Positions 278 through 12,429 of a stretch of 18,513 bases of DNA are shown piece after piece. Source of the DNA: Methanoculleus marisnigri. GTDB lineage: Archaea > Halobacteriota > Methanomicrobia > Methanomicrobiales > Methanoculleaceae. The notes beneath the pieces were generated by a model. It was given only the letters and a program-made list of their open reading frames with translations. It was not told where the DNA came from and did no database searches. Each line of letters opens with the position of its first letter. The first letter of the stretch is position 1. Where the stretch lies: contig DASQ01000041.1 of NCBI GenBank assembly GCA_002503885.1, forward strand, positions 1-18,513, given 5' to 3'. Made by a program: the position numbers and the translations under genes.

Positions 278-1465
278 TCACCCATCACCATGTTTTGCAT
301 TCCATTCCACGTATCGCTCAAGATCTTCCACCTTTAACGGGGATCGTATCTTGCCAAATGCGGCTGCAAAGTCATTTTCACAGAGAGGTCGCGTTATCAG
401 CGCGCGCTCTTTGAGTTCATCAAACGGCAGATCCGCGAGCCGGTGAATTTCAGGATTGACATCGTTGATCATCGTCCAGATCGCCTGTTGATAGACATTC
501 TGGATGTCACGTCCCGAGTACAGGCGGTCGACGCATTGCCGTCCGAGTTCGACGAGGTCAACTCCGGATACTTCAAGCCCTCGCATGTGAATCTCGATAA
601 TTGCCCTGCAGGCATCGATATCCGGGAGCGGCACATAGATTCGCCGCGGGAACCTCGACAATATTGCCGAATCGAGATCCCAGGGTGCATTTGTTGCCGC
701 CATCGTGAGGAGCAGACGGTCGTCTTTTTTGCCCTGCAGGCCGTCAAGCTCGATGAGGAGAGAGGAGAGCACTCTCCGGGTCGCTTCGCTCATCGTGTCG
801 CTCCGCGATGCACCAAGGGCATCAAACTCATCGATAAAGACGATCGAAGGGGCCTGTTCTCGCGCCGCGGCATACAGGGAAGAGATCATCTTCGAAGACT
901 CGCCAAAGTATTTCGAGAGCAATCGGTCGGTTTTTACGTTGAAAAATGTTGCATCCAGGCTCCCTGCCGCAGCAGCTGCAATCATTGTTTTCCCCGTACC
1001 CGGCGGACCTAAAAGGAGAATACCCTTCCACGGACGGATAGATTCCGGTCTTTTCAGGGCTGCGATAGCAACGGTCTCCTTCACGAGGCGCTTGACCTCG
1101 TCAAGCCCGCCGATATCCTCCCATCGAACCGATGAGCGCGCGATCAGCGACGACATCTCAGTATCGCCTGCAAGCTCTTTAACAGAACGATTCGAATGCC
1201 CAGGTGCGCCCGATGTCTTGCTTTGTCTTCTCTGTGCAACCAACGCTGAACGGGATGCAATACCCTTCCATCTCTCTGCCTCGGCGGTATACCTTTGCTG
1301 CATCATGGGCGAAGAGACTGCAATCTGCCGACAGAGTGTTGCACACGCCCGCGCCCTCTCGTTAGCAGTCGCGTTGTCCGCTTCAGCTACTGCCTTTCTA
1401 TAGCCAGTAATAGTTTTCCGCAGTTCCGCAAGCAAAAATCCGCTAACGTCCACGTGCACAGTCAT
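278..1465 (-). CDS. AAA+ ATPase of the Vps4/katanin/spastin (meiotic) clade with a MIT-like N-terminal helical domain
   Basis: Walker A GPPGTGKT, Walker B IVFIDEFDAL and second region of homology are all present. The C-terminal segment (…YVEWNAKHG) resembles the Vps4-type C-terminal helix. About 100 N-terminal residues form three predicted helices before the ATPase core. The true start is probably ATG at 1463-1465, since the listed GTG at 1466-1468 is in frame. That start overlaps the stop of the upstream gene as tgATG. Confidence 0.85.
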   Translation of the reverse strand: MTVHVDVSGFLLAELRKTITGYRKAVAEADNATANERARACATLCRQIAVSSPMMQQRYTAEAERWKGIASRSALVAQRRQSKTSGAPGHSNRSVKELAGDTEMSSLIARSSVRWEDIGGLDEVKRLVKETVAIAALKRPESIRPWKGILLLGPPGTGKTMIAAAAAGSLDATFFNVKTDRLLSKYFGESSKMISSLYAAAREQAPSIVFIDEFDALGASRSDTMSEATRRVLSSLLIELDGLQGKKDDRLLLTMAATNAPWDLDSAILSRFPRRIYVPLPDIDACRAIIEIHMRGLEVSGVDLVELGRQCVDRLYSGRDIQNVYQQAIWTMINDVNPEIHRLADLPFDELKERALITRPLCENDFAAAFGKIRSPLKVEDLERYVEWNAKHGDG

Positions 1466-4161
1466 CACCTCATCGCTTCTCGAAGGATGTTCTCCTTGAG
1501 TAATTCGACATCATCGGCAAGAGATTCAATCTCATTGTCGAGGTCCTCGTCGATGTAAAAACGCAGGTGCTCACTTACTTGTTGCAGTTTTTCGAGGATA
1601 TCTCCACGGACGAACACTTCGAGGTGAATTGCAGATTTACGTGCTTCCAGACGATCACGTTGCCGCAGATGTTCCACAAGGTTTTGTGCAACGAAATATG
1701 CCGTCCGGTAGTCCGGTTCGGGCGACCCAGGATCCGCTAGAACTACGATTTCCTCCGGGGTATCCGGTTTGGGCGGCACCGGGTCCGGAGACGCTACGAT
1801 TTTCTTCAGGACATCACCTGCAATCCCGCCGATAGAGCGCTCTATCCACCGGTGTTCGCTATGGTTGAAGACGTGAACTCTGGTGCGGTCATCCAGGTTG
1901 TTTCTAATCGCTTCTTTCACACCGGCCTGGATCAGCATGGGAGCGCATCCTGCGTCCGCCCACAGCCCTGCTGCCCAGATTGCCGCACCCCTGACCCGGT
2001 TGCTCCTTGAACCAATACACGTGAGGAGGACTTTTTCAAGATCTTTCTGCTGTAAAAACGACTTATCGCGTACCTTTGAAAGTTCACCGATGATCGATAC
2101 CGCCGCTTTTCGGATCTCCAGGTCCTTCTCCTGTGCACATCGTTTCAGATCCGTGACGAGAGTTTCGGCATCGCATAGCGAATCCGCGTACCCCCTGCAT
2201 GAGATTGACCAGAGCGCCCATAAAACACGAAACCGAACTTCATCATTTTGTACGTTCAAAAGGTGGGCAAGTGCAGTAGCACCGCCATTTCGCACCACCG
2301 GTTCGGGGCTTGCATAAAAAGCGATCTTGTCGAGGGCGAGGGCAGCGCATGCCTGGACTTCGTGGTTTTTGCTATAGAGAAGACGGATATAGCGCAGAGT
2401 CGCGCCGGAATCTGCGACCGCAATGCCCTGACCCGCTTCGGCAACCACTGCCAGAGACCATGCCGCGGCGCTGCACACCGGGTCTGCCGGGTCGTCAAGA
2501 TGTGCGGCCATTTCAGGAAGGATCCCTGATCCGGCAACCTCATACGAATAACCCTGGTAAGCAAGGTTTCCGAGAACCCAGAGGATGTTTCTTCGAACAT
2601 CGGGGACGGAATCGTCGAGCGCTCTGCCGAGCATATCAAACGCTCTTTCTCGAATGATCGCTCCGGCTTTTCCTCCTTTGGCCAGGATGTCGAGTTGGTA
2701 CGATGCATGAATCCGATCCTGGCTATCTTCCGACCCGAGCCGTATAAGCAGCCGTTTAACATCCGAATTGCCATCGTTGCCAGATTCTCTGCGAAGTTCT
2801 CGATCGAGCATCGCGGTACATTGAGCGATTTTACTCCTCACCTCTTCCCGAAGTTTTGTCGAAGAACTGTGGATATGGTCGAATGCATTTTGATACGATC
2901 TCAAGGCGTCGCGGTACGCAGCCCTCTCATAGAGGATGTCACCTCTGAGAATGTAGGGAAAGAGAAAGCCAGGACGGGTGCGTATCGATTCCTCAGCCAG
3001 CCTAAGTGCTTCATCGGTTTGATTACGAGCGTGGAGGCACATCCCTTTCCCGTTCAATGCCCACGGGTGTCTCTTGATCCGCATTGCCCTGTCGTAGTAG
3101 GCAATTGCCTCTGAATACTGCTTCTGCTCGCGGTAGATATCGGCAATGCCGATGTACGGGAACGGATATGATCGCGCTCTGTCAAGAGAGATTGCCCGCT
3201 CGTAGCACTCTATAGCCTCCTTTTGCCGACCAAGCCTTCTGAGTGCATTTCCCTTTTCATTCCACGCCCAGTGGGAGCCGGGTTCAAGTTCCAGAGCCGT
3301 GGTAAAGTGCTTTAGCGCATCTTCAAAGCGCTGAACTTTGTAAAACTCCTTTCCCTTGTTCAGATTAGCCATGTACTTTGCATGATTGTCTGTCGAATTT
3401 GATTCCGGATGAGAATAGCCTCCGTTCTTCTCATCCAGTATGCTTGTGGCCGCAGGTGCATCATGTAGTTTTTTTCGAATGCTGGGGATGTGGTCGCTGA
3501 ACGCTCTGATGAGAGCATTCAAAGGCTTTTCTTGATTACCCGGCTCCACGCGAACATCTCGATCGAGCATCGCAGTACACTGAGTGATTTTGCTCTTCAC
3601 TTCTCCCCGAAGTTCAGGCGAGGGGCCGCGGATCAGTTCGTATGCCCTTTGATATGATCTCAAGGCGTCGCGGTACGCAGCCCTCTCATAGAGGATGTCA
3701 CCTCTGAGAATGTAGGGAAAGAGAAATTCAGGGCGAATATGTATCGACTCTTCAGCCAGTCTGAGCGCTTCATCGGTTTGATTAAGAGCGTGGAGGCATC
3801 TTCCTTTCCCGTTCAATGCCCATGGGTGTCTCTTGATCCGTATTGCTCTGTCATAATAAGCAATTGCCTCTGAGTACTGCTTCTGATCGCGGTAGATGTC
3901 GGCGACGCCGATGTATGGAAACGGATACGAGTGCCTTTTGTCTAGGTGAATTGCCCGCTCGTAACAATCCCTCGCTTCCCTTTGCCTTCCAAGTCTCCTG
4001 AGTGCATTGCCCTTTTCATTCCACGCCCAATGAGAGTCTGGTTCGAGTTCCAGGGCTGTGTTAAAGTACTTGAGCGCATCCTCAAAACGCTGAACTTTGT
4101 AAAGTTCCTGCCCCTTGCTCAGATTAAACATGTACTTTGCATGGTTGTCTGTCTGATTCAT
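1465..4161 (-). CDS. Large TPR-repeat + HEAT/PBS-lyase-like repeat protein (898 aa) with an internal tandem duplication of a ~245-aa TPR module
   Basis: The N-terminal half contains two ~85%-identical copies of a TPR block (NHAKYM.NL.KG.E.YKVQRFEDALK.F.TALELEP.SHWAWNEKGNALRRLGRQ…). The C-terminal ~400 aa has repeated HEAT-like units (AAWSLAVVAEAG, VRFRVLWALWSI, VRGAAIWAAGLWADAG). There are ATGA overlaps with both neighbouring genes. Confidence 0.85.
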   Translation of the reverse strand: MNQTDNHAKYMFNLSKGQELYKVQRFEDALKYFNTALELEPDSHWAWNEKGNALRRLGRQREARDCYERAIHLDKRHSYPFPYIGVADIYRDQKQYSEAIAYYDRAIRIKRHPWALNGKGRCLHALNQTDEALRLAEESIHIRPEFLFPYILRGDILYERAAYRDALRSYQRAYELIRGPSPELRGEVKSKITQCTAMLDRDVRVEPGNQEKPLNALIRAFSDHIPSIRKKLHDAPAATSILDEKNGGYSHPESNSTDNHAKYMANLNKGKEFYKVQRFEDALKHFTTALELEPGSHWAWNEKGNALRRLGRQKEAIECYERAISLDRARSYPFPYIGIADIYREQKQYSEAIAYYDRAMRIKRHPWALNGKGMCLHARNQTDEALRLAEESIRTRPGFLFPYILRGDILYERAAYRDALRSYQNAFDHIHSSSTKLREEVRSKIAQCTAMLDRELRRESGNDGNSDVKRLLIRLGSEDSQDRIHASYQLDILAKGGKAGAIIRERAFDMLGRALDDSVPDVRRNILWVLGNLAYQGYSYEVAGSGILPEMAAHLDDPADPVCSAAAWSLAVVAEAGQGIAVADSGATLRYIRLLYSKNHEVQACAALALDKIAFYASPEPVVRNGGATALAHLLNVQNDEVRFRVLWALWSISCRGYADSLCDAETLVTDLKRCAQEKDLEIRKAAVSIIGELSKVRDKSFLQQKDLEKVLLTCIGSRSNRVRGAAIWAAGLWADAGCAPMLIQAGVKEAIRNNLDDRTRVHVFNHSEHRWIERSIGGIAGDVLKKIVASPDPVPPKPDTPEEIVVLADPGSPEPDYRTAYFVAQNLVEHLRQRDRLEARKSAIHLEVFVRGDILEKLQQVSEHLRFYIDEDLDNEIESLADDVELLKENILREAMR
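2670..4150. repeat. Intragenic tandem duplication (~750-bp unit x2) inside the TPR/HEAT gene
   Basis: Near-identical DNA stretches are visible, e.g. 2895-2990 versus 3650-3745 (…gatctcaaggcgtcgcggtacgcagccctctcatagaggatgtcacctctgagaatgtagggaaagagaaa…). The protein repeats correspond to about aa 6-245 and 258-495. Confidence 0.8.
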
Positions 4162-4679
4162 TTTCCACTTCCTAGAAAGACCTGGAGTTCCTCATCTATC
4201 CGGCCGGCCACAAGCGAGACCACATCACCAAACCCGCTGACCGTTACGTTGAGATGCGTTGCCCCTGCATCCCCGGACCAGAGAAGCCCGACGGTCGCCT
4301 GTCCCTTTCGGGTATAGGCAGTATACGATTCGACTCCGTTGCGGACCCCCTCATAACTTGAATTGAGTTTATTCAGGACATATCTTAAAAATTGTTTTAA
4401 TGCGTCCTTATCCAGAGATGTCTCATAATACAGAGTCTTTGTCGCTTCGCGAATATCGGGCACGGATTCCTCTGCAGAATATATTCTGACATCTTCACTT
4501 CCCCGTTCCAGCCGTGCGTAGAGGTCCTGCAGGAAGTCTTCAATCACCTCGTCTCTCACCAGAATGGCGACGCCCCTCTCTTTGTGTACATCTTTTTTCG
4601 ACTTCCATCTGTCAATCGTGGCGTCAATCCGCTTACGCTCGGCATCTGAGTGGTAGTCGACAACGAGGAGGTATTCCAT
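4158..4679 (-). CDS. Hypothetical protein (~173 aa), first gene of the minus-strand operon
   Basis: The ORF has no recognisable motifs. Its likely start is ATG at 4677-4679 (MEYLLVVDYHSD…), since the track's GTG at 4703 lies inside the TATA box. Its stop overlaps the start of the TPR/HEAT gene as ATGA. Confidence 0.6.
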   Translation of the reverse strand: MEYLLVVDYHSDAERKRIDATIDRWKSKKDVHKERGVAILVRDEVIEDFLQDLYARLERGSEDVRIYSAEESVPDIREATKTLYYETSLDKDALKQFLRYVLNKLNSSYEGVRNGVESYTAYTRKGQATVGLLWSGDAGATHLNVTVSGFGDVVSLVAGRIDEELQVFLGSGK

Positions 4680-4702
4680 TTGATAACCATATGCGGGTAC
4701 CA

Positions 4703-4713
4703 CTATATATATT
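4703..4713 (-). promoter_or_regulatory. Archaeal TATA box (ctatatatatt) for the minus-strand operon
   Basis: A strong A/T alternating octamer lies about 25-35 bp upstream of the ATG at 4679. That geometry fits a leaderless or short-leader archaeal promoter. Confidence 0.5.
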
Positions 4714-4742
4714 CCTCCGCAGTGGAGTTATTGATTTTGGAG

Positions 4743-4752
4743 TATATTAATA
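4743..4752 (+). promoter_or_regulatory. TATA-like element (tatattaata) for the plus-strand operon
   Basis: An AT-rich box lies about 60 bp upstream of the ATG at 4814 in the divergent intergenic region. Confidence 0.4.
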
Positions 4753-4753
4753 T

Positions 4754-4768
4754 CCTCCATATTGGAGG
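4754..4768. promoter_or_regulatory. Inverted repeat CCTCCA-tat-TGGAGG; a related CCTCC-gcagt-GGAG lies at 4714-4727
   Basis: Two similar palindromes lie between the two divergent TATA boxes. Either could be an operator site. Confidence 0.35.
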
Positions 4769-4813
4769 AAAGTTTATCATGTATGGAGGGCAATGGTCAA
4801 TCGGTGAAGTGTG

Positions 4814-5416
4814 ATGAAGATCGCAAGCCTGTTTCATCGGAACCGGATAGAGATGTTGACGATCACCGAACTGCAGGAGGAAGAGATCATATTAAAGAGC
4901 AGGATCAACCGCCTCCGGAAGGAGATCGACAGAATCGAGCGCGAGAAAAAACTGAAATTTGCAGAAGGCGTCGGCGGCGACCTTATCAAGAAGAAGATGC
5001 TTGCTCAGGAACTCAAGCAACTGGATATGACTGCAAAGCTCAAGGTTCGAAACTTCCTTGCCCTGCATAAACAGTACATGTTTATCTCGAACCTGGTTAT
5101 CATCAAAAAGTATCAGCGGGATCTCCAGAAGACACACATCTGGGAGAAGATCCAGACGATCTCTCCGGAAACTATCGAGAGTGCCCTCATCCGCGTGAAT
5201 CTCTCCGGAAAGAATTTTGAAACTGTCGTCGACGACTTAAATCAGGTGTTTGCCCTTGATCTTTCGGACTCGGATCAGGACCTCGACGAAGCTGAAAAGC
5301 AGATGTTTGAAGTCTGGAGCAGTGTCGAGACCGGTTCGCTAGGGCTTGATGAAGCGAAAGATCTCTTTTCGATTGAGAAAGATATCGAGAAGGCGATCCG
5401 CGAATCCGAAGGGTAA
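4814..5416 (+). CDS. ESCRT-III/Snf7/PspA-like coiled-coil protein (candidate)
   Basis: About 200 aa: a basic and coiled-coil N-terminal two-thirds (…RINRLRKEIDRIEREKKLKF…KKKMLAQELKQL…) and an acidic C-terminal tail (DLDEAEKQMFEVW…LDEAKDLFSIEKDIEKAIRESEG). Size, charge distribution and proximity to a Vps4-like ATPase all fit an ESCRT-III-like protein. The family assignment is by eye only. Confidence 0.5.
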   Translation: MKIASLFHRNRIEMLTITELQEEEIILKSRINRLRKEIDRIEREKKLKFAEGVGGDLIKKKMLAQELKQLDMTAKLKVRNFLALHKQYMFISNLVIIKKYQRDLQKTHIWEKIQTISPETIESALIRVNLSGKNFETVVDDLNQVFALDLSDSDQDLDEAEKQMFEVWSSVETGSLGLDEAKDLFSIEKDIEKAIRESEG

Positions 5417-5446
5417 CCCCTCAGATCGTGATGGGTGGTCACTACC

Positions 5447-6097
5447 ATGAAGATTCTATCCCGTAGGCATCCGAAAGACCCGTTCGCCTCGTCCAGCATC
5501 AGCGATCTACGCAAGGCCGAAGCGCTGCTGAAGTGCCGGATCGGCACCCTCGAATCCGAATCTCAGGACCTCAAAGAAAAGATACAGAACCTGCTCGACG
5601 ATGGTGCCTCGATATGCGACGAGCCGCGCGATGCCCATCGTGCAATGCGGATCCGGACACTCATAGAACAATACCACATGAAGAATGCAGTTTGCGTGAA
5701 ACTTGAGCGCGATCTCCGCCTGATCTCGTATATCATCGCTATGAGAGATCGTGACAGGATGCTGAACCTGTCGGACGCCTGCCAGAAACTCAACAGGATC
5801 TCTCCTGACAAGCTCGAAGAATGGCTGGCAAAGCAATCCGTACATGAGGAAGGCGACAGAAACCGTGTCGAAGACCTTCAAGCCATTCTCTCCGAACAGA
5901 TTCCGGGCGGCAAAGACCATCCTGTCGATGAAACCTCGATACGGCAGGCAATGGAAGAGATTCGTGGCGGAGCAGTTCCAGTTGCCGTAATCGTAAAAAA
6001 TCTCCTGGATGGGTCTCTATCGGGAAAGGAGAGAATCAGAACGACTATAACACAGTATGATAAATTTCCCGGTAAGCAGGGAAGGGATGAGCAATGA
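5447..6097 (+). CDS. Second ESCRT-III/Snf7-like coiled-coil paralogue (candidate)
   Basis: About 215 aa, starting MKILSRRHP… (compare MKIASLFHR… in the upstream gene). It is coiled-coil with an acidic C-terminal region. Its stop overlaps the next gene's ATG (ATGA at 6094-6097). Confidence 0.45.
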   Translation: MKILSRRHPKDPFASSSISDLRKAEALLKCRIGTLESESQDLKEKIQNLLDDGASICDEPRDAHRAMRIRTLIEQYHMKNAVCVKLERDLRLISYIIAMRDRDRMLNLSDACQKLNRISPDKLEEWLAKQSVHEEGDRNRVEDLQAILSEQIPGGKDHPVDETSIRQAMEEIRGGAVPVAVIVKNLLDGSLSGKERIRTTITQYDKFPGKQGRDEQ

Positions 6098-7989
6098 CCA
6101 ATGGGGATATTACCTGTCCTAAATGTAAAATCCAGCTTGGGGCCGCTGCAAAGTTTTGCCCGCAGTGCGGAACGAAGGTCGGTGCGTATACCTGCGGCAG
6201 CTGCGGGGTTACCGTGCCTCCCGATGCAAAATTCTGCCCCGGTTGCGGGAAAGGATTTGAAAAAACTCTCTTCGGAAGGATCGTAGGAGCTAACGAAGAG
6301 GACTTTTCGCGGAGGCGCGAATGGAGACGAACCCCTGAAGATTTTGCGAGTAAATTTGAGGTTGAAGATCTCCGGGGCGTCCTGAAAAAGACCGTTACCG
6401 TTGCCGAGGGAACCCGCGCGCTTCTTTTCCAGGGAGGAGCATATGCGGGCGACCTGCCGGCAGGTCACTACACCCTTGGAAATATTCTCGAAGCCAAACT
6501 GCCCCTGAACCTCGACGAACGCGCGACGGTCGTGCTCATCGACGATGGCGTGGTTGCAATCGATTTCACCATCGGGCGCTCGGAACTGCGCACCGCCGAC
6601 TCCGTCCCCGTCGGGATTGCCGGAAGATTTACGATCAGAAACAGGGATTCGAAATCGTTCATCGCAAATCTCCTCAAAGGGAAGGGCCGAATCCTCCTTG
6701 CGGATCTCCAGGAAGATCTCCGATACGATCTCCTTGGTGTCGTTCAGTCCACGCTGAGCGGATACCGGATGGACGATCTCTATGGGAACCTCGCCGTAAA
6801 GGAAGACATCGAGAGTGCCGTCAGGGCAAACGTCACCCCTACCCTTTCGAGTTACGGCTTTTCCCTCGAACAACTCAGGTTCACGCAATCCGATGAGGCA
6901 GAGTGGCACGATATCCTTGAACAGCGCAGCGAAGGGACGAAAAAGGTCACGAAGACCGGACTTCAGATCGATATCGAACAAAAACTGCGGCACCTTCTCT
7001 CCGACGATAAACTCGACCAGCTGGCTACCGACGAGAAAATCAGCGAATACTGTCACGAGCTGGCTCAGGCCGGCATCGTTCGCGAGAACGAGATCGAAGA
7101 CCTGAAGATCGCCCTTCGAAACCGGCGCGACGATAAGGCCTTCATCCGCCAGATTATCCGGGAGCGGTTTGAGCAGGCTCATCGTCACGAGTCTGCCGAA
7201 GCGGAGCAGGACAATCTCCTTGGCCTGGACGCAAAAGCGCAGCGGCACGGACGTACCATGGATGCCGAGCAGACAGGGCACGAGATCGGCACCGATGATG
7301 CCCGGCGTGAACACCTGAACAAGTGGAGAGGGCGGGAGCGACAGCAGGATCATGCCGAGATAGAGGATCTCATCGGCCTGAAAAAGCAGATGGACGATGC
7401 AAAGCTCCAGAGAGTGCGTGGAGAACAGGAGCTAGCCCACGAAGACCTCGAGAAGCAAACCGAGATTGAGGGGAAGAAACTCGAACAGCGTATCAATGCC
7501 TCACCCGAGGCGCTTATCTCGATGACGGACGGCGGTACCGCTGAAAAGCTTACGGAACTCGAAAAGATGAAGCGCGCAGCAGCCCTCACCGAAGGACAGA
7601 TCATGGCGCTTTCGGCAGAAAAGAGTACCGCCGTTGCAGAGGCGATGAAAGAGAAGTTCGGATCCGACAGGATGCAGGAGCTCTTCGAAACCCGCCTGCA
7701 GGACCAGCAGAAATACATGGAAACGATCCAGGCAATGGCCGGAGGTAACGCGGATCGCCTGGCCGACGTCATGAACAAGGCGCTCGATGCCATGGGTCAG
7801 ACGGCGACCGCACGGAGCTCCGCCCACCAGGCACAGGGCTCGACGGTCGTTGCCGGCGGCGGAGGGCTCGGCCAGCCGGTGATCATCAACCCTGCCCGGC
7901 AGGAAGAGAGCCGGATATGCCCCGGATGCAAAACGCCAAACAGTACCGCCGATCGGTTTTGCAAGGAGTGCGGCGAGGAACTCAGGTGA
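6094..7989 (+). CDS. Zinc-ribbon / SPFH (Band_7_1, COG4260-like) / long coiled-coil / zinc-ribbon protein (flotillin-like architecture)
   Basis: The N-terminal double zinc ribbon has three CxxC-type pairs (CPKC…CPQC…CGSC…CPGC). Residues ~95-250 match the Band_7_1 SPFH signature (…AEGTRALLFQGGAYAGDLPAGHYTL…VPVGIAGRFTIRNRDSKSFIANLL…). A ~250-aa E/K/R/Q-rich coiled coil follows. The C-terminal zinc ribbon is CPGCKTPNSTADRFCKECG. Confidence 0.75.
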   Translation: MTNGDITCPKCKIQLGAAAKFCPQCGTKVGAYTCGSCGVTVPPDAKFCPGCGKGFEKTLFGRIVGANEEDFSRRREWRRTPEDFASKFEVEDLRGVLKKTVTVAEGTRALLFQGGAYAGDLPAGHYTLGNILEAKLPLNLDERATVVLIDDGVVAIDFTIGRSELRTADSVPVGIAGRFTIRNRDSKSFIANLLKGKGRILLADLQEDLRYDLLGVVQSTLSGYRMDDLYGNLAVKEDIESAVRANVTPTLSSYGFSLEQLRFTQSDEAEWHDILEQRSEGTKKVTKTGLQIDIEQKLRHLLSDDKLDQLATDEKISEYCHELAQAGIVRENEIEDLKIALRNRRDDKAFIRQIIRERFEQAHRHESAEAEQDNLLGLDAKAQRHGRTMDAEQTGHEIGTDDARREHLNKWRGRERQQDHAEIEDLIGLKKQMDDAKLQRVRGEQELAHEDLEKQTEIEGKKLEQRINASPEALISMTDGGTAEKLTELEKMKRAAALTEGQIMALSAEKSTAVAEAMKEKFGSDRMQELFETRLQDQQKYMETIQAMAGGNADRLADVMNKALDAMGQTATARSSAHQAQGSTVVAGGGGLGQPVIINPARQEESRICPGCKTPNSTADRFCKECGEELR

Positions 7990-8003
7990 GCCGTGGAAGG
8001 CTG

Positions 8004-8030
8004 TGCCGGATGTGCCACGTGCATCCGGCA
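8004..8030. other. Hairpin (9-bp stem tgccggatg/catccggca, 9-nt loop containing cacgtg) 15 bp after the stop of the SPFH gene
   Basis: The inverted repeat was read directly. It may be a transcript 3'-end structure or a protein-binding palindrome. Confidence 0.3.
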
Positions 8031-8081
8031 ACTCGCCCTTCACCTTTAGTCACCATCACAAAAACTCAATTCTGATGCCGT

Positions 8082-8966
8082 ATGTCTGGAGATCAAGATT
8101 TTACCTGTGCAAAGAACCTCGTTGCCCCGGCCGAGACAGTCCTGAAGAGTGGATCGGCGATCGTCAGGCAGTCTTACGATGAGCGGGTGAGACTCTGGTG
8201 TGCGATCCGGGAAAACTACTCCCGGTATGAGAACCGGGAATGTGGTTCCTTTGACAGTACGTTTCACCAGGTGTTCTGCTCCAAGTTCGAGGCGGCGCTG
8301 CTGACCCTCGCCGTGAGTTTCCGTCGGAGTGGCGAGAACTACGCGGATGCCGAAGGGATGTACTCCGCGGACGAGCTCGCACTCTACGAGATCATCGAGC
8401 GGTACCAGGTTCTTCCGTCCAAGAGCGAACTCATTGTCAGGCTGAGCGCGCCGGACGGGGGCGGTTCGGAGTTCCTTCAGGTGCACTACCAGCATATCGA
8501 CAGCCTCATTAACGAGATCTGCAACCGTCCGCACGCCACGAATCCGTTCCTCATCCACTACCTGAAGCATGAGTGGGAGAAGTACGATCGGAGACTGCAC
8601 GAGGTCGTGGTAGACCTCGTGCAGAAGAACGGCCTGCGATGGTTCTTCACCTACATCAATCAGGGGAGTGCCAGGGCAGAACAGATCGTCTACAATATCT
8701 CTGGCGGGTCGGTGAATCTCGGGAACGGCGTGCAGGTCATCGACAGTATCATGAACCGGGCCGGTATCGGCAACCAGTCGGAGGGGCAGTTCAGGCCTTC
8801 GAGCGGGGGTATTCAGGTTTATGATAGTGTCGTGAACCGGTCGGCCGTCGGGGGAGGGGACGACGAGGAGCAGAGGTTCTGTGCCGAATGCGGTAACCCC
8901 TTAAGCGACGGAGCGAGATTTTGTACCCGGTGCGGGCAGCAGGTAAAATGCCCACATACTTCGTGA
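8082..8966 (+). CDS. Hypothetical protein with a C-terminal zinc ribbon (CAECGNPLSDGARFCTRCG) and an internal short repeat
   Basis: 294-aa ORF with a Cys4 ribbon at the C-terminus. Two similar ~19-aa segments are VQVIDSIMNRAGIGNQSEG and IQVYDSVVNRSAVGGGDDE. Confidence 0.65.
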   Translation: MSGDQDFTCAKNLVAPAETVLKSGSAIVRQSYDERVRLWCAIRENYSRYENRECGSFDSTFHQVFCSKFEAALLTLAVSFRRSGENYADAEGMYSADELALYEIIERYQVLPSKSELIVRLSAPDGGGSEFLQVHYQHIDSLINEICNRPHATNPFLIHYLKHEWEKYDRRLHEVVVDLVQKNGLRWFFTYINQGSARAEQIVYNISGGSVNLGNGVQVIDSIMNRAGIGNQSEGQFRPSSGGIQVYDSVVNRSAVGGGDDEEQRFCAECGNPLSDGARFCTRCGQQVKCPHTS

Positions 8967-9012
8967 GATGCGCGAGTGCTTTGGCCGGATTGGAGATTTC
9001 GTGAGGGAGTGA

Positions 9013-11193
9013 ATGGCAATCTTTGGATGGATAAGGGATAAGAAGGAAACAGCTCCCGGGTGGGTTGAGAAGGGGAATCAGGCAGCAACGCCGGAAGAAC
9101 AGTGTCGTTGCTACGACAGGGCGCTCGAGATCGACATGAACTGTGCGGCTGCCTGGAACAATAAAGGCAATGCGCTTCATCTCCTCAACCAGTACGAGGA
9201 GGCGATACAGTGTTACGAAAAGGTAATCGAGATCGACCCGAACAACGCGGGTGCCTGGAACAATAAAGGCTACGCGCTTCATTCCCTCAACCGGTACGAC
9301 GAGGCGATCCTGTGTTACGACAGGGCACTTGAGATCGACCCGAAAAATGCTGCTGTATGGGGGGATAAAGGCCTCGCGCTCCATTCCCTCCGCCGCTCCG
9401 ACGAGGCGATCCGATGTTACGATAGGACGCTTCAGCTTGACCCGACAGATGCTGTTGCATGGGAGAAAATAGGCCTCGCACTCCTGAACCTCGGCCGGTA
9501 CGACAAGGCGATCCGGTGCTGCGACAGGGCACTTGAGATCGACCCGAAAAATGCAGTTGTATGGCGCAACAAAGGCTTCGCACTCCAGAAGAGCCCCGGT
9601 GGGGACAATAAGGCGATCCGATGTTACGATAGGGCACTTGAGATCGACCCAAAATGTGCTGCGGTATGGGGGAATAAAGGCTCCGTGCTCCTGGGCCTCC
9701 GCCGCTTCGATGAGGCGATCCTGTGTTGCGATAGGGCACTTGAGATCGACCCGACAGATGCTGTTGCATGGAGCAATAAAGGCCGCGCACTCCTGATCCT
9801 CAGCCGGTACGACGAGGCGATCCGGTGCTACGACAGGGCACTTGAGATCGACCCGTACGATGATGATGCATGGTACTATAAAGGCTGCGCACTCCATAAC
9901 CTCGACCGGTACGAGGAGGCGATCCGGTGCTACGACAAACCACTTGAGATCTACCCGAAATTTGCTATTGCATGGATAAATAAAGGCGACGCCCTCCATC
10001 ACCTCGGCCGGTACGACGAGGCGATCCGATGTTGCGACAGGGCACTTGAGCTCGACCCGACAGATGCAACCGCACAAAATATGCGAGACCGTATATTGGT
10101 TGAGAGCGCTAAAAGTGCTCGAAAAAACCGGTCGACGCCCCCTTGTTCGGGCGAGGCCGGGCAGTCACTGCAGCCCTCCGCACATCCCGGAGAGCCGGCG
10201 GGGACTCGACAATCCATCACCATTGAGCGCACCGTCTATGACCCCCTCACCACGGACTTCATCGTCTCCTCCCCCCGCCCCCTTGTCAACGTCAGGAACT
10301 GGATCGACCAGCACGACCCCGCCTCCTACTGGCTGGTCATCTGTGTGCACAACTACGGCGGTGCCGCCATCGACGAGTGGGGGATCGAACTGGACTCTTC
10401 GTCGTCCCTCCGGGTCCTCGACACCGCTATCGAGGGAATCGACGGGCAGATGCACCTCATGACCAGCAACCCAAAACCCTGGCAGGTAAGGTCGATCCTC
10501 GGGATCACCCGCCACCAGGGGATCGCGATCCCACGAGACGGTTCCCGCAGGGTGTACTTCAAGTTGGGCTCGGAGTCGTGCGGTATATCGCATACCATCC
10601 AGGGGAAGTTCATTATCAGCAGCGTCGAGGTTCCGATCCGCGAGAAGACCTTCACCCACTCGTGCGACGTCGCGACCCTGCGCGTCGCACTCTCAAGAAA
10701 CCCCGCCGCCGCCGGGCAGTATGCAGAGAATATCATCCGGCGTTCATACGACCGGGACACTGCCCTGAAACTTCTTCGTTCGTTCAAACTGGTGCAGGAG
10801 ATCGACCAGTGCTGCACATCGCAGAAGTACAACGAGATCCTCGACCGAATGCAGCTCCTGGCGGGAACGCTGGAGAGTATTCAGGCTGGGGACAAAGTGA
10901 CTCATCTGGTACGGCAGGGCTGCGTTGCACTGGAGATACTCGGGGATAGTGAAGCCTCGGTGGAGAAAGCACGGCGGCTCTGCAGCAACATCGTCGATAC
11001 TTGGGTGAATGAGTTTATAGGCATCGAGGACCATGCTTCCAAGTCTATGTCGCATGAAAGAGGGGGAGATGCAGGGAAATGCCCTCTGTGCGGTTCCCGT
11101 CTTGTATGGAGGAGAGCTCAAAAGAATAATGAGCTATATCGAGGGTGCACGAACTTCGATGGCGGTTGCCGGTGGAACGATCGTAGTTACTAG
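9013..11193 (+). CDS. TPR-repeat protein (10 x 34-aa TPR) with an unknown ~330-aa C-terminal domain and a terminal topoisomerase-type C4 zinc finger
   Basis: The repeats follow (A/V)W-NKG-AL--L-RYDEAI-CYDRALEIDP. The C-terminus CPLCGSRLVWRRAQKNNELYRGCTNFDGGCRW matches the zf-C4_Topoisom pattern CPxCG…GC…C. AGGGAG lies 5-8 nt upstream of the ATG. The stop codon TAG (11191-11193) is formed at the IS insertion junction. Confidence 0.8.
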   Translation: MAIFGWIRDKKETAPGWVEKGNQAATPEEQCRCYDRALEIDMNCAAAWNNKGNALHLLNQYEEAIQCYEKVIEIDPNNAGAWNNKGYALHSLNRYDEAILCYDRALEIDPKNAAVWGDKGLALHSLRRSDEAIRCYDRTLQLDPTDAVAWEKIGLALLNLGRYDKAIRCCDRALEIDPKNAVVWRNKGFALQKSPGGDNKAIRCYDRALEIDPKCAAVWGNKGSVLLGLRRFDEAILCCDRALEIDPTDAVAWSNKGRALLILSRYDEAIRCYDRALEIDPYDDDAWYYKGCALHNLDRYEEAIRCYDKPLEIYPKFAIAWINKGDALHHLGRYDEAIRCCDRALELDPTDATAQNMRDRILVESAKSARKNRSTPPCSGEAGQSLQPSAHPGEPAGTRQSITIERTVYDPLTTDFIVSSPRPLVNVRNWIDQHDPASYWLVICVHNYGGAAIDEWGIELDSSSSLRVLDTAIEGIDGQMHLMTSNPKPWQVRSILGITRHQGIAIPRDGSRRVYFKLGSESCGISHTIQGKFIISSVEVPIREKTFTHSCDVATLRVALSRNPAAAGQYAENIIRRSYDRDTALKLLRSFKLVQEIDQCCTSQKYNEILDRMQLLAGTLESIQAGDKVTHLVRQGCVALEILGDSEASVEKARRLCSNIVDTWVNEFIGIEDHASKSMSHERGGDAGKCPLCGSRLVWRRAQKNNELYRGCTNFDGGCRWNDRSY
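9100..10060. repeat. Tandem 102-bp coding repeats (TPR units) with very high DNA-level identity
   Basis: The string …tgttacgacagggcacttgagatcgacccgaaaaatgc… recurs at about 9313, 9523, 9628, 9727, 9829 and 10024. These repeats generate the spurious minus-strand ORFs 8791-10077 and 9287-9790. Confidence 0.85.
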
Positions 11194-12429
11194 TGCATCG
11201 ATTCTAAATTAACCTGACTACCCCATTTCCACCCCGGAGGGATTTGCATCCATTGTGTATGACCACTTGAATACTACTGGTGTCTGATTCAACGTATCAA
11301 CATACTGCGAAATCCGATCGGTAATCTCTTCCTTTGATTTCGCTCGAATGCCTCGCAGTACCGTCCGAGTGGTTTTACTGAAGAATGCTTCAATAATATT
11401 GAGCCAGGACGCGTGTTTCGGGGTAAAAATGAATTCGAATCGATTCGGAACCGTTTTGAGGTACTTCCGGGTTGCAACCGAGGAGTGAACCTTGAGGTTG
11501 TCCAGGATGATTTTCAATTTCATCGTGTCCGGATACTGGGTATCGAGCATTTTCAGGAACGCGATGAATTCCTCGCTCCGATTGCGTTCGGTAATCCGGT
11601 AATGAACAAATCCGGTCACCAGATCCATCGCTGCCTGCAAACAGATGGTACCGTTGCGAACATACTCATAATCCCGGCGAATGGAGGAGAATTGCCCGGG
11701 CACCGGCATCAGATCGGGGTACTTCGTATCGAGTACCTGGATGCCGCTCTTTTCATCAAACGAGAGAATAAATGTATCCGGCTCTTTGCCTTCTTTTTCC
11801 AGAATCTTGAACCTATTCGCTTCCTGGTAGGTGTGGAGAACGACGGCTGCCGTCTCGTGAAACGCTGGATCCCGTTTCTGGACATATGACCGGATTTTAT
11901 GAGGTTTTATGGCACTCGCATTGGCAATTTTTGAGATCGTCCCTTGCGAAATCCGGGCAACTTCCGGAAATCCTTCTTCCATGGCGTGTTCTCGAATATA
12001 CTGCTGCAAGAGCCGCTGCGTCCAGAGTTCATGAGGATAGCCGAAATCAGAAGGTTTCTGGCATAGCAAGCTCACGATCCATGTCCTGGCTTCGGGAGAG
12101 ATGGTTTTCGGCCGACCACTCCGGGGGAGATCGTTCAACCCCTCCCGGATACCGACAGCGAGGACGCGCTGGATGGTTCGGATCACTCTCTGACGAGAGA
12201 GCCCTAATTCACGCGCGATAGCAGAATCGGATTTGCCTTGATGGCTGAGGAGGACCATCTTCGCACGCTCGTACGTGCCCTTTTGGGTCGTGCGAGAATG
12301 AAGTAATTTCTCCAAATAGTCAAGTTCCTCATCAGATAAGAGTACGGGCTCACGGACAGAGACAAAGGGCATACTCCAAGTGGGGCGTCATGCTATTTAT
12401 TACGTTGTTTATTTGGAATCTATGCACTA
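11191..12429 (-). mobile_element. Complete IS630/Tc1-mariner-family insertion sequence with 20-bp imperfect terminal inverted repeats and a TA target-site duplication
   Basis: The terminal inverted repeats are ctagtgcatcgattctaaat (11190-11209) and the reverse complement of atttggaatctatgcactag (12411-12430); 18 of 20 positions match. TA flanks both ends (11191-92 and 12428-29). There is a single transposase ORF. Confidence 0.85.
11218..12372 (-). CDS. IS630-family DDE transposase (HTH + DDE_3, DD37E-type spacing)
   Basis: An N-terminal helix-turn-helix region (…SAIARELGLSRQRV…) is followed by catalytic D in SFDEKSG, D in ILDNLKVH and E in WLNIIEAFF, 37 residues after the second D. This layout is typical of the Tc1/IS630 superfamily. 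Confidence 0.85.
   Translation of the reverse strand: MPFVSVREPVLLSDEELDYLEKLLHSRTTQKGTYERAKMVLLSHQGKSDSAIARELGLSRQRVIRTIQRVLAVGIREGLNDLPRSGRPKTISPEARTWIVSLLCQKPSDFGYPHELWTQRLLQQYIREHAMEEGFPEVARISQGTISKIANASAIKPHKIRSYVQKRDPAFHETAAVVLHTYQEANRFKILEKEGKEPDTFILSFDEKSGIQVLDTKYPDLMPVPGQFSSIRRDYEYVRNGTICLQAAMDLVTGFVHYRITERNRSEEFIAFLKMLDTQYPDTMKLKIILDNLKVHSSVATRKYLKTVPNRFEFIFTPKHASWLNIIEAFFSKTTRTVLRGIRAKSKEEITDRISQYVDTLNQTPVVFKWSYTMDANPSGVEMG

Follow-up and report, generated by a model that had tools for sequence, protein, structure and literature searches.

The locus analysed here, a window of 18,513 nucleotides from Methanoculleus marisnigri, raises the question of what a protein built around an SPFH domain, with zinc ribbons at both of its ends, may be doing among ESCRT-III-like genes. 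The protein, WP_303714675.1, consists of four parts, a double zinc ribbon, an SPFH domain, a region of charged helices and a C-terminal zinc ribbon, and the ATG of its gene overlaps the stop codon of the upstream gene, p220 (ATGA). The gene and its features are located as follows.

6094..7989, + strand: gene of WP_303714675.1 (DZR-SPFH-helical-ZnR protein), a real ORF of 631 aa
6115..6249, + strand: N-terminal double zinc ribbon, residues 8-52 (Pfam DZR, E 2.6e-14)
6340..6894, + strand: SPFH (Band 7) domain, residues ~83-267
6898..7497, + strand: charged helical region, residues 269-468 (E+D+K+R = 41%; helices in the AF2 model)
7501..7821, + strand: Ala-rich conserved helical region with near-invariant residues, residues 470-576
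7822..7911, + strand: Gly-rich strand-prone linker (QGSTVVAGGGGLGQPVIINP), residues 577-606, conserved, disordered in the monomer model
7915..7983, + strand: C-terminal zinc ribbon, residues 608-630 (Pfam Zn_ribbon_3, E 4.6e-7)

The first-pass annotation had recognised the SPFH core through the motifs AGHYTL and AGRFTIRNRDSKSFIANLL; both are found, at residues 123-128 and 176-194 respectively, and the domain order that it proposed, with zinc ribbons on either side of the SPFH domain and the long helical region behind it, is borne out. The double ribbon is formed by four CxxC pairs (C8/11, C22/25, C34/37, C48/51), whose eight cysteines are invariant in sets of 16, 68 and 87 relatives; those of the C-terminal ribbon (C609/612, C623/626) do not vary in the sets of 68 and 87 sequences, all chosen for having both ribbons. 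The Pfam scan for SPFH/Band_7 matched PF01145 at residues 102-267 with 32.0 bits, above the cut-off of 23.6, and Band_7 is matched by 57 of 68 family members; the SPFH alpha/beta fold is present in a fold comparison, and a PDB sequence search with the family profile gave zinc-ribbon matches only and no SPFH chain. The label Band_7_1/COG4260, also proposed, has to be withdrawn: PF13421 reaches 20.1 bits, below its curated cut-off of 24, covers only profile positions 100-190, and is matched by only 16 of 68 family members (E≤1e-3). Traits of the COG4260 type that are present are the C-terminal zinc ribbon and the linkage to the ESCRT-III-superfamily-like genes p201 and p220.

The region that follows the SPFH domain had been described as a coiled coil of ~250 aa. 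Its charged and helical character is confirmed, over ~300 aa (residues 269-576), but a canonical coiled coil is unsupported, as a simple heptad-occupancy test against 200 shuffles yielded a z of 1.15, which is not significant. The AF2 monomer model (mean pLDDT 64.9, pTM 0.32) splits the region into ~12 helices with low-confidence joints. The charged part is ~90 residues shorter in the Methanocorpusculum homologue. The Ala-rich part is the best-conserved stretch outside the SPFH core, with E472, L474, E488, E490, Q502, A508, A515, R555, M560 and A563 invariant or nearly so, and is also kept in two bacterial-type relatives (P0028, P0029). For residues 269-606 there is no Pfam match even at E≤1, neither to Flot (PF15975) nor to any other post-SPFH domain. 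No TM segment can be recognized in WP_303714675.1 (maximum Kyte-Doolittle 19-residue mean 1.23), and none of 82 relatives exceeds 1.6; the N-terminal membrane anchor, a TM helix or hairpin, that is usual though not universal in SPFH proteins is absent. A basic Trp-containing segment (residues 72-85) was considered as a membrane-binding motif and dropped, because the model puts residues 83-90 in a strand of the SPFH domain.

The arrangement of these domains had been judged atypical. Among the best 149 representatives of the family, 82 have the same pattern of two N-terminal ribbons and one C-terminal ribbon, and double ribbon/SPFH/ribbon turns out to be the normal build of a large family. The family had looked tiny because a word-indexed homologue search found only 30 relatives, and no more when rerun with a 68-sequence profile; an exhaustive profile search gave its true size, 394 cluster representatives (50% identity) at E≤1e-30. 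One member bears a bacterial name (Vicinamibacterales). Most relatives with a sampled context lie in bacterial-type neighbourhoods (one named Vicinamibacterales, one Planctomycetales), which contain kinase, FHA and lipoprotein-like genes. Homologues of Vps4 and p201/p220 were not detected in these sampled neighbourhoods, and an HMM search for p201, p220, p181 and p294 in three bacterial loci was negative except for ribbon matches; as no ESCRT-type genes were detected in the bacterial-type contexts sampled, the family does not need ESCRT partners.

In M. marisnigri, instead, ESCRT-III-like genes and a Vps4-like ATPase lie in the neighbourhood of the gene of WP_303714675.1, in agreement with the surroundings first proposed for it. 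The remainder of the cluster is arranged as follows.

278..1465, - strand: Vps4-like single-AAA ATPase, 395 aa, WP_303714669.1, with a Vps4_C-type C-terminal helix
1465..4161, - strand: TPR + HEAT/Arm repeat protein, 898 aa, overlapping both neighbours by 4 nt
4158..4703, - strand: p181, conserved 173-181-aa protein (synteny), first gene of the leftward operon
4704..4813, no strand: divergent intergenic region with AT-rich TATA-like boxes
4814..5416, + strand: p201, ESCRT-III-like, 200 aa, WP_303714673.1, first gene of the rightward operon
5447..6097, + strand: p220, p201 paralogue (hhalign against p201), 216 aa, WP_303714674.1
8082..8966, + strand: p294, 294 aa, with a C-terminal zinc ribbon, WP_303714676.1

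The proteins p201 and p220 share an ESCRT-III-like helical hairpin and are paralogous to each other: hhalign relates them with a probability of 98.5% (E 3e-15), AF2 modelling shows a short N-terminal helix followed by a long hairpin, and a profile search of the PDB matched CdvB (9s9j_A) across this hairpin with E 0.22. Pfam Snf7 does not match either of them even at E≤10. Orthologues of p220 are named 'PspA/IM30 family protein' in UniRef; the NCBI name of p201, 'chromosome assembly protein', is probably a coiled-coil artefact. The ATPase matches AAA (5e-36) and Vps4_C (1.9e-3) in Pfam and CdvC in NCBIfam (4e-51, below the CdvC cut-off), Katanin and Vps4B align with it as far as the C-terminus, and its M. 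taiwanensis orthologue, WP_255333475, is listed in the published Vps4 set (PMC10936438). The same tables assign the M. taiwanensis orthologue of p294, WP_255333480.1, to arCOG09748, an ESCRT system protein. The protein p181, which has no Pfam or PDB sequence match, is probably arCOG08177 (inactivated Cas2 + TBP-like domain), an assignment based only on accession order in M. bavaricum (entry WP_042699369). PDB profile searches with p220, p181 and p294 gave no significant match. A TM segment is predicted for none of the eight proteins of the cluster, among which neither a membrane anchor nor an integral membrane partner could be identified. The intergenic region carries two copies of the repeat TCCTCC-N5-TGGAG, and an IS630-type transposase flanks the cluster. 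Zinc ribbons recur in p294, in the TPR proteins of Methanocorpusculum and in bacterial neighbour proteins.

Synteny was compared in the window and in the loci L008-L012, L016 and L017. The same order, with the Vps4-like AAA, TPR(/HEAT) and p181 genes pointing leftward and the p201, p220 and SPFH genes pointing rightward, is found in six Methanomicrobiales loci and in Methanocorpusculum; p294 follows the SPFH gene in 5 of 7 loci, one contig ending earlier and Methanocorpusculum having a 78-aa gene at that place. The SPFH proteins of the syntenic genera share only 29-60% identity. A contig scan with back-translated patterns returned six close loci only, because the patterns are specific to the Methanomicrobiales clade.

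On balance we favour the reading that WP_303714675.1 is a soluble SPFH scaffold of the arCOG15283 family and part of a euryarchaeal ESCRT-type membrane-remodelling module, in which it would form a cage that recruits p201 and p220; a scaffold for ESCRT-III-like polymers, as first suggested, is a plausible role for it. By analogy with HflK/C, flotillin, prohibitin, erlin and stomatin, many copies would line up laterally to build a ring or a truncated cone, with the SPFH domains as the wide rim facing the membrane, the charged helices 269-468 as the cage wall, the Ala-rich helices 470-576 as the cap and, as in flotillin, the strand-prone segment 577-606 as a strand of an apical beta-barrel. The N-terminal double ribbons would then be gathered round the rim, which is the site of the membrane anchor in other SPFH proteins, and the C-terminal ribbons at the apex; the ribbons are most likely protein-protein docking modules. 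On the membrane, the SPFH assembly would recruit or nucleate p201 and p220, a role like that of YdjI towards PspA in Bacillus subtilis, and the Vps4-like ATPase would then remodel or disassemble their polymer. Vesicle formation, protein sorting and membrane repair are all candidates for the physiological output. Two observations weigh against this reading: no membrane anchor was identified in the cluster, and most relatives with a sampled context lie in bacterial-type neighbourhoods in which ESCRT partners were not detected.

The bacterial-type contexts can be read in other ways. Every non-Methanomicrobiales context sampled holds a recurring operon consisting of HTH_17, a ~320-aa unknown protein, an LpoB/CsgG-like protein and the DZR-SPFH protein itself, flanked by genes for FHA, PP2C and STK-FGE-sulfatase proteins, and homologues of Vps4, p201, p220 and p181 were not detected in these contexts; moreover, WP_303714675.1 is 27-33% identical to its bacterial-type relatives, which are about as distant from it as the Methanocorpusculum homologue (31%). 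These observations would suit an SPFH platform that serves signalling or quality control and does not depend on ESCRT for its core function, with ribbon-bearing or TPR proteins as its partners, joined in bacteria by Ser/Thr kinases, FHA and PP2C proteins, and with the ESCRT adjacency reduced to secondary recruitment or co-regulation. We consider this unlikely, however, since the archaeal SPFH gene is translationally coupled to one of the ESCRT-III-like paralogues, the entire cluster keeps its synteny from genus to genus despite the low identity of the SPFH proteins, and an independent link between SPFH and the ESCRT-III superfamily exists in Firmicutes (YdjI with PspA). Slightly less doubtful, and still tentative, is the broader proposal that SPFH double-ribbon proteins are a large bacterial and archaeal clade of TM-less cages, unnamed in Pfam and NCBIfam, whose ribbons replace the rim anchor and decorate the apex, and which are wired to two unrelated partner sets. 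These sets would be the ESCRT-III/Vps4 module in Methanomicrobia and, with the same reservation, the recurring bacterial operon with its FHA, PP2C and Ser/Thr-kinase genes nearby. In that case the ribbons would act as a modular docking code, and the archaeal ESCRT link would be a lineage-specific recruitment rather than an ancient SPFH/ESCRT-III partnership.

Dispensing with the cage altogether, WP_303714675.1 might be an elongated helical tether, a monomer or low-order oligomer that links two partners through its end ribbons; one end might hold p294 or TPR proteins, for instance, and the opposite end the ATPase or a membrane protein. The many helical segments with low-confidence joints in the AF2 model, the missing heptad signal and the recurrence of ribbons among the neighbouring proteins are all in line with such a tether, which we nonetheless regard as rather improbable, more so than the signalling platform. 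We give very little credence to an anti-virus or conflict system with the SPFH protein as a membrane-based sensor or trap for an invader and the AAA ATPase as effector partner. The ATPase does match the PADLOC IetA models (E 2e-33) and NCBIfam IteA (2e-31), bacterial relatives adjoin CHAT protease and STK-FGE-sulfatase genes, and the transposase lies beside the cluster; but the IetA/IteA scores reflect generic AAA similarity (109 bits against a curated cut-off of 510), the position of the cluster is stable beside housekeeping genes and conserved across the whole order, and PADLOC matches neither p201, p220 and p294 nor the SPFH protein, the last being the reason for which this interpretation was set aside.

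Returning to the reading of WP_303714675.1 as an ESCRT-recruiting scaffold, its interest lies in the targeting and nucleation of ESCRT-III in archaea without ESCRT-I/II, for which SPFH proteins are one published candidate. The locus is a compact and well-conserved example, with seven soluble proteins encoded in a pair of divergent operons whose genes overlap at their stop and start codons, and it could lend itself to reconstitution in vitro. Four points go beyond what has been published: members of the family have, as a rule, the N-terminal double ribbon; no cluster protein has a predicted TM segment; the post-SPFH region may be mapped, by analogy, onto the wall, cap and strand plan of the solved cages; and the family is far larger than the archaeal set, with no ESCRT partners in the sampled bacterial-type contexts (one of them named bacterial), which bears on the age of the SPFH/ESCRT-III link. 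The basic classification of WP_303714675.1 is unchanged by these points.

That classification follows from the comparison with arCOG15283, which is catalogued as 'SPFH family protein, ESCRT system component' (Makarova et al. 2024, mBio, PMC10936438), with Methanocorpusculum bavaricum WP_042699360.1, M. parvum WP_095642223.1 and Methanosalsum zhilinae WP_013898576.1 among its listed examples; a cage-forming role is proposed there for the SPFH component, and the YdjI-PspA link is cited. As judged from sequence similarity, WP_303714675.1 belongs to this family: BLASTP aligns it end to end with WP_042699360.1 (P0328) at 29% identity (E 2e-81) and with the Methanocorpusculum protein in L016, a 90%-identity cluster mate, at 31% (E 9e-96), and the cluster representative P0043 matches the family profile with E 1.4e-123. 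The Methanocorpusculum members have their domains in the same sequence (DZR, SPFH, helical region, zinc ribbon), and their gene likewise follows a pair of ESCRT-III-like genes and lies opposite the gene of a Vps4-like ATPase; WP_303714675.1 is 88 aa longer, the surplus lying in the charged helical region. The published M. zhilinae protein, compared by description, differs more: it has 428 aa with SPFH at residues 1-212, therefore leaving no space, as annotated, for an N-terminal ribbon pair, and its locus has adaptin-like, GOLD and ProX genes that are absent here. Among the entries covered from the tables of PMC10936438, WP_255333475 and WP_255333480 of M. taiwanensis appear, and WP_255333479.1, the orthologue encoded between these neighbours, does not. 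The architecture is represented by full-length homologues (WP_042699360.1, WP_095642223.1) in arCOG15283, and its family has been on record since 2024 as part of the archaeal ESCRT system. It has turned out to be common, and also well described in part, the description being computational.

Among bacterial proteins, YdjI is of the Band_7_1/COG4260 type, whereas WP_303714675.1 falls below the Band_7_1 threshold. In Bacillus subtilis, YdjI is a soluble protein ending in a zinc finger; it binds PspA, whose recruitment to the membrane depends on it (Scholz et al. 2021, PMC8581546). The two proteins are alike in being soluble SPFH proteins that contain a low-complexity stretch and have a zinc finger at the C-terminus, and in being co-encoded with an ESCRT-III-superfamily partner, which for YdjI is PspA (pspA-ydjGHI operon). 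The module set of that operon is the same, with YdjG bringing two N-terminal zinc ribbons (PMC8581546; Ravi et al. 2024, PMC11237479); however, YdjG is a separate membrane protein, while in WP_303714675.1 the double ribbon is fused to SPFH. The M. marisnigri cluster also differs in having no TPM-domain/TM partner comparable to YdjH, and in that the partner, in place of PspA, is Snf7-like and accompanied by a Vps4-like ATPase.

With respect to the SPFH cages with solved assemblies (HflK/C, flotillin-1/2, prohibitin-1/2, erlin-1/2, stomatin, QmcA), the post-SPFH region specific to flotillin (Pfam Flot, with AEA-type repeats) is not matched in WP_303714675.1. In flotillin a cap helix, a beta-barrel strand and a C-terminal domain come after the wall, the wall helices are charged and without heptads (Fu & MacKinnon 2024, PMC11260169), and across SPFH proteins the length of the wall helix ranges from 44 to 189 aa (PMC11260169); the missing heptad signal in WP_303714675.1 fits, by analogy, the flotillin wall-helix pattern. 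What sets WP_303714675.1 apart from all these cages is found at its two ends, where a double zinc ribbon stands instead of the N-terminal TM helix or hairpin, and a zinc ribbon instead of the usual C-terminal tail.

The ORF 6094..7989 on the + strand encodes a protein of 631 aa, which by exact-sequence look-up is WP_303714675.1, a 'zinc ribbon domain-containing protein' of Methanoculleus marisnigri; AGHYTL and the second motif quoted by the first-pass annotation are both found in it. The Pfam scan agrees with the domains that had been read by eye, except for the label Band_7_1 (PF13421), which at 20.1 bits falls short of its cut-off of 24:

Residues 8-52: double zinc ribbon (Pfam DZR, E 2.6e-14)
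Residues 102-267: SPFH domain (Pfam Band_7, PF01145, 32.0 bits against a cut-off of 23.6)
Residues 608-630: C-terminal zinc ribbon (Pfam Zn_ribbon_3, E 4.6e-7)

HflK, erlin-2 and stomatin are later entries among the SPFH structures to which the protein is likened. Residues 269-576 had been described as a coiled coil of about 250 aa. Their charge (E+D+K+R = 41% of residues 270-470) and predicted helicity (about 12 segments in the structure model) were borne out; the coiled coil was not, and because a simple test of the occupancy of a/d positions gives z = 1.15 against 200 shuffles we refer to this stretch as a helical region.

The genes around the SPFH gene form two divergent operons:

278-1465, - strand, leftward: single-AAA, Vps4-like ATPase (Vps4_C match; full-length alignments to katanin and Vps4B)
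1465-4161, - strand, leftward: 898-aa TPR and HEAT/Arm protein
4158-4703, leftward: 181-aa protein (p181)
4814-5416, rightward: p201
5447-6097, rightward: p220
6094..7989, + strand, rightward: SPFH gene, after p220
8082-8966, + strand, rightward: p294, 294 aa, with a C-terminal ribbon

The stop codon of p220 overlaps the SPFH start codon (ATGA), and 4-nt overlaps also follow from the ORF coordinates of the leftward genes. Transmembrane segments are predicted in none of the 8 proteins of this presumed membrane-remodelling module (278-11193; maximum Kyte-Doolittle 19-residue mean 1.36), and no membrane anchor was found across the whole cluster. Matching gene order occurs in Methanogenium sp. MK-MG, two Methanocalculus genomes, Methanocorpusculum and many metagenome contigs, and twice in one Methanomicrobiaceae MAG. 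The Methanocorpusculum locus has a 78-aa gene at the position of p294, without p294 itself; in contig L011 this position lies beyond the contig end. As paralogues, p201 and p220 align with an hhalign probability of 98.5% (E 3e-15). In the predicted model of p201 (pLDDT 77) a short helix at the N-terminus and several further short ones accompany a long helical hairpin (17-52/57-99), and the top PDB sequence match of its profile, over the hairpin, is CdvB (9s9j_A), weak at E 0.22; an ESCRT-III identity of the two proteins is weakly supported. In p294, residues ~206-255 hold a conserved motif in two copies (GVQVIDSIMNRAG, GIQVYDSVVNRSA), N-terminal to the ribbon.

Other features of the locus were also recorded. 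A ~200-aa N-terminal TPR module is tandemly duplicated (2587-4161, - strand, 81% amino-acid identity) within the TPR/HEAT gene 1465-4161; because the homologues of Methanogenium and Methanocalculus (623 and 637 aa) are ~265 aa shorter, the duplication is probably recent. The divergent intergenic region (4704-4813) contains AT-rich TATA-like boxes, a palindrome (4738-4759) and the direct repeat TCCTCC-N5-TGGAG, whose copies at 4713-4727 and 4753-4767 are spaced by 40 nt; a regulator may bind here. An IS630-type transposase (DDE_3 and HTH domains; 11218-12372, - strand) lies immediately downstream of the cluster, and the TPR gene adjoining it is called at 379 aa, not 726 aa, in metagenome variants L004 and L005. 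The matches of the Vps4-like ATPase (278-1465, - strand) to the anti-phage models IetA (PADLOC, E 2e-33) and IteA (NCBIfam, 109.5 bits against a cut-off of 510) were read as generic AAA similarity. Several contigs with this Methanomicrobiales cluster (L007, CAYYEN010000298.1, and those of proteins P0238, P0268, P0280 and P0349), 66-96% identical to the window proteins, carry the MAG labels Spirochaetaceae, Methanomethylophilaceae, Paludibacter, Cloacimonetes and Clostridia; the publicly deposited genomes were probably misbinned.

The protein can be assigned to a family of the survey of archaeal ESCRT systems by Makarova et al. 2024 (PMC10936438). Its Table S1 describes arCOG15283 as 'SPTH [sic] family protein, ESCRT system component'. 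At least 9 members are listed, two of which are WP_042699360.1 (Methanocorpusculum bavaricum) and WP_095642223.1 (M. parvum). The Methanocorpusculum locus, retrieved via the p201 homologue, encodes at the equivalent position a 543-aa DZR-Band_7-ZnR protein whose 90%-identity cluster contains both. The window protein aligns end to end with the 543-aa protein (31% identity, E 9e-96) and with WP_042699360.1 (29% identity, E 2e-81), and this homology to listed members places it, on sequence grounds, in arCOG15283. In Methanocalculus taiwanensis the accessions run Vps4 WP_255333475, p181 WP_255333476, p220 WP_255333478, SPFH WP_255333479 and p294 WP_255333480; the survey's tables give the first as Vps4 and the last as arCOG09748, and WP_255333479 is not among the matches listed from them. 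The same source gives arCOG09748 a C-terminal winged helix, but in the p294 proteins the C-terminal domain is a ribbon. By accession order, p201 and p181 of M. bavaricum may be WP_042699366 (arCOG09747, 'Snf7 family') and WP_042699369 (arCOG08177).

The domain arrangement, which had been thought atypical, is common. A word-indexed search returned only 30 relatives. The exhaustive search by profile, run against 1.84 billion cluster representatives, returned 1535 at E<=1e-10, of which 394 reach E<=1e-30; many span the entire profile. The same ribbon pattern (four N-terminal and two C-terminal CxxC pairs) occurs in 82 of the 149 top representatives, none of these 82 with a TM-like segment; for some of the others, length and incomplete coverage of the profile suggest fragments. 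Among 68 relatives picked for having both ribbons, Pfam finds Band_7 in 57 and Band_7_1 in 16. Outside archaea, HTK28168.1 (Vicinamibacterales MAG) is a named member; P0030 (Planctomycetales MAG) is more distant (25% identity over 52% of the query), with a weak Band_7 match only and no ribbon domains on record.

Six contexts of relatives outside Methanomicrobiales were sampled, and in four of them a bacterial-type operon recurs, in which HTH_17 and an unknown protein of ~317-334 aa precede the DZR-SPFH-ZnR gene:

Locus L015, 5562-12340
Locus L018, 6470-11423
Locus L019, 7399-11845
Contig of the relative P0028

Immediately preceding the SPFH gene, L019 and L015 have an LpoB/CsgG-like gene, and the gene at this place in L018 gives a borderline match to LpoB. 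On the flanks lie genes for FHA, PP2C and Ser/Thr kinases that carry fused FGE-sulfatase domains, and several flanking proteins also have double ribbons. No Vps4 gene was found in the six contexts, and no homologues of p201, p220 or p181 by HMM in three loci (L013-L015); the sampled relatives appear to do without ESCRT genes.

The original observation is confirmed with two corrections, and its interpretation, a flotillin-like scaffold anchoring ESCRT-III-like polymers, is partly supported. The functional idea agrees with the HflK/C-like lidded compartment proposed for the archaeal SPFH protein in the survey, which also cites the role of YdjI in PspA localisation (PMC10936438); the claim that the architecture is unusual fails. 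Beyond the fold, architecture, family membership and operon linkage established here, the protein would oligomerise side by side, as in solved SPFH assemblies (PMC11260169). The SPFH domains would form the membrane-facing rim, the length-variable residues 269-468 the wall (the Methanocorpusculum protein is ~90 residues shorter within the matching region), the conserved Ala-rich helices 470-576 the cap, and the conserved segment GSTVVAGGGGLGQPVIINP, disordered in the monomer model, the apical strand. The double ribbons would encircle the rim, the site of the membrane anchor in other SPFH proteins, and the C-terminal ribbons would crown the apex. On the model of YdjI and PspA (PMC8581546), the assembly would recruit or nucleate the ESCRT-III-like proteins, which the Vps4-like ATPase would recycle. 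Cage walls of SPFH proteins range from 44 to 189 residues, and that of flotillin is charged and without heptad repeats (PMC11260169); the helical region of the window protein is like it in both respects.
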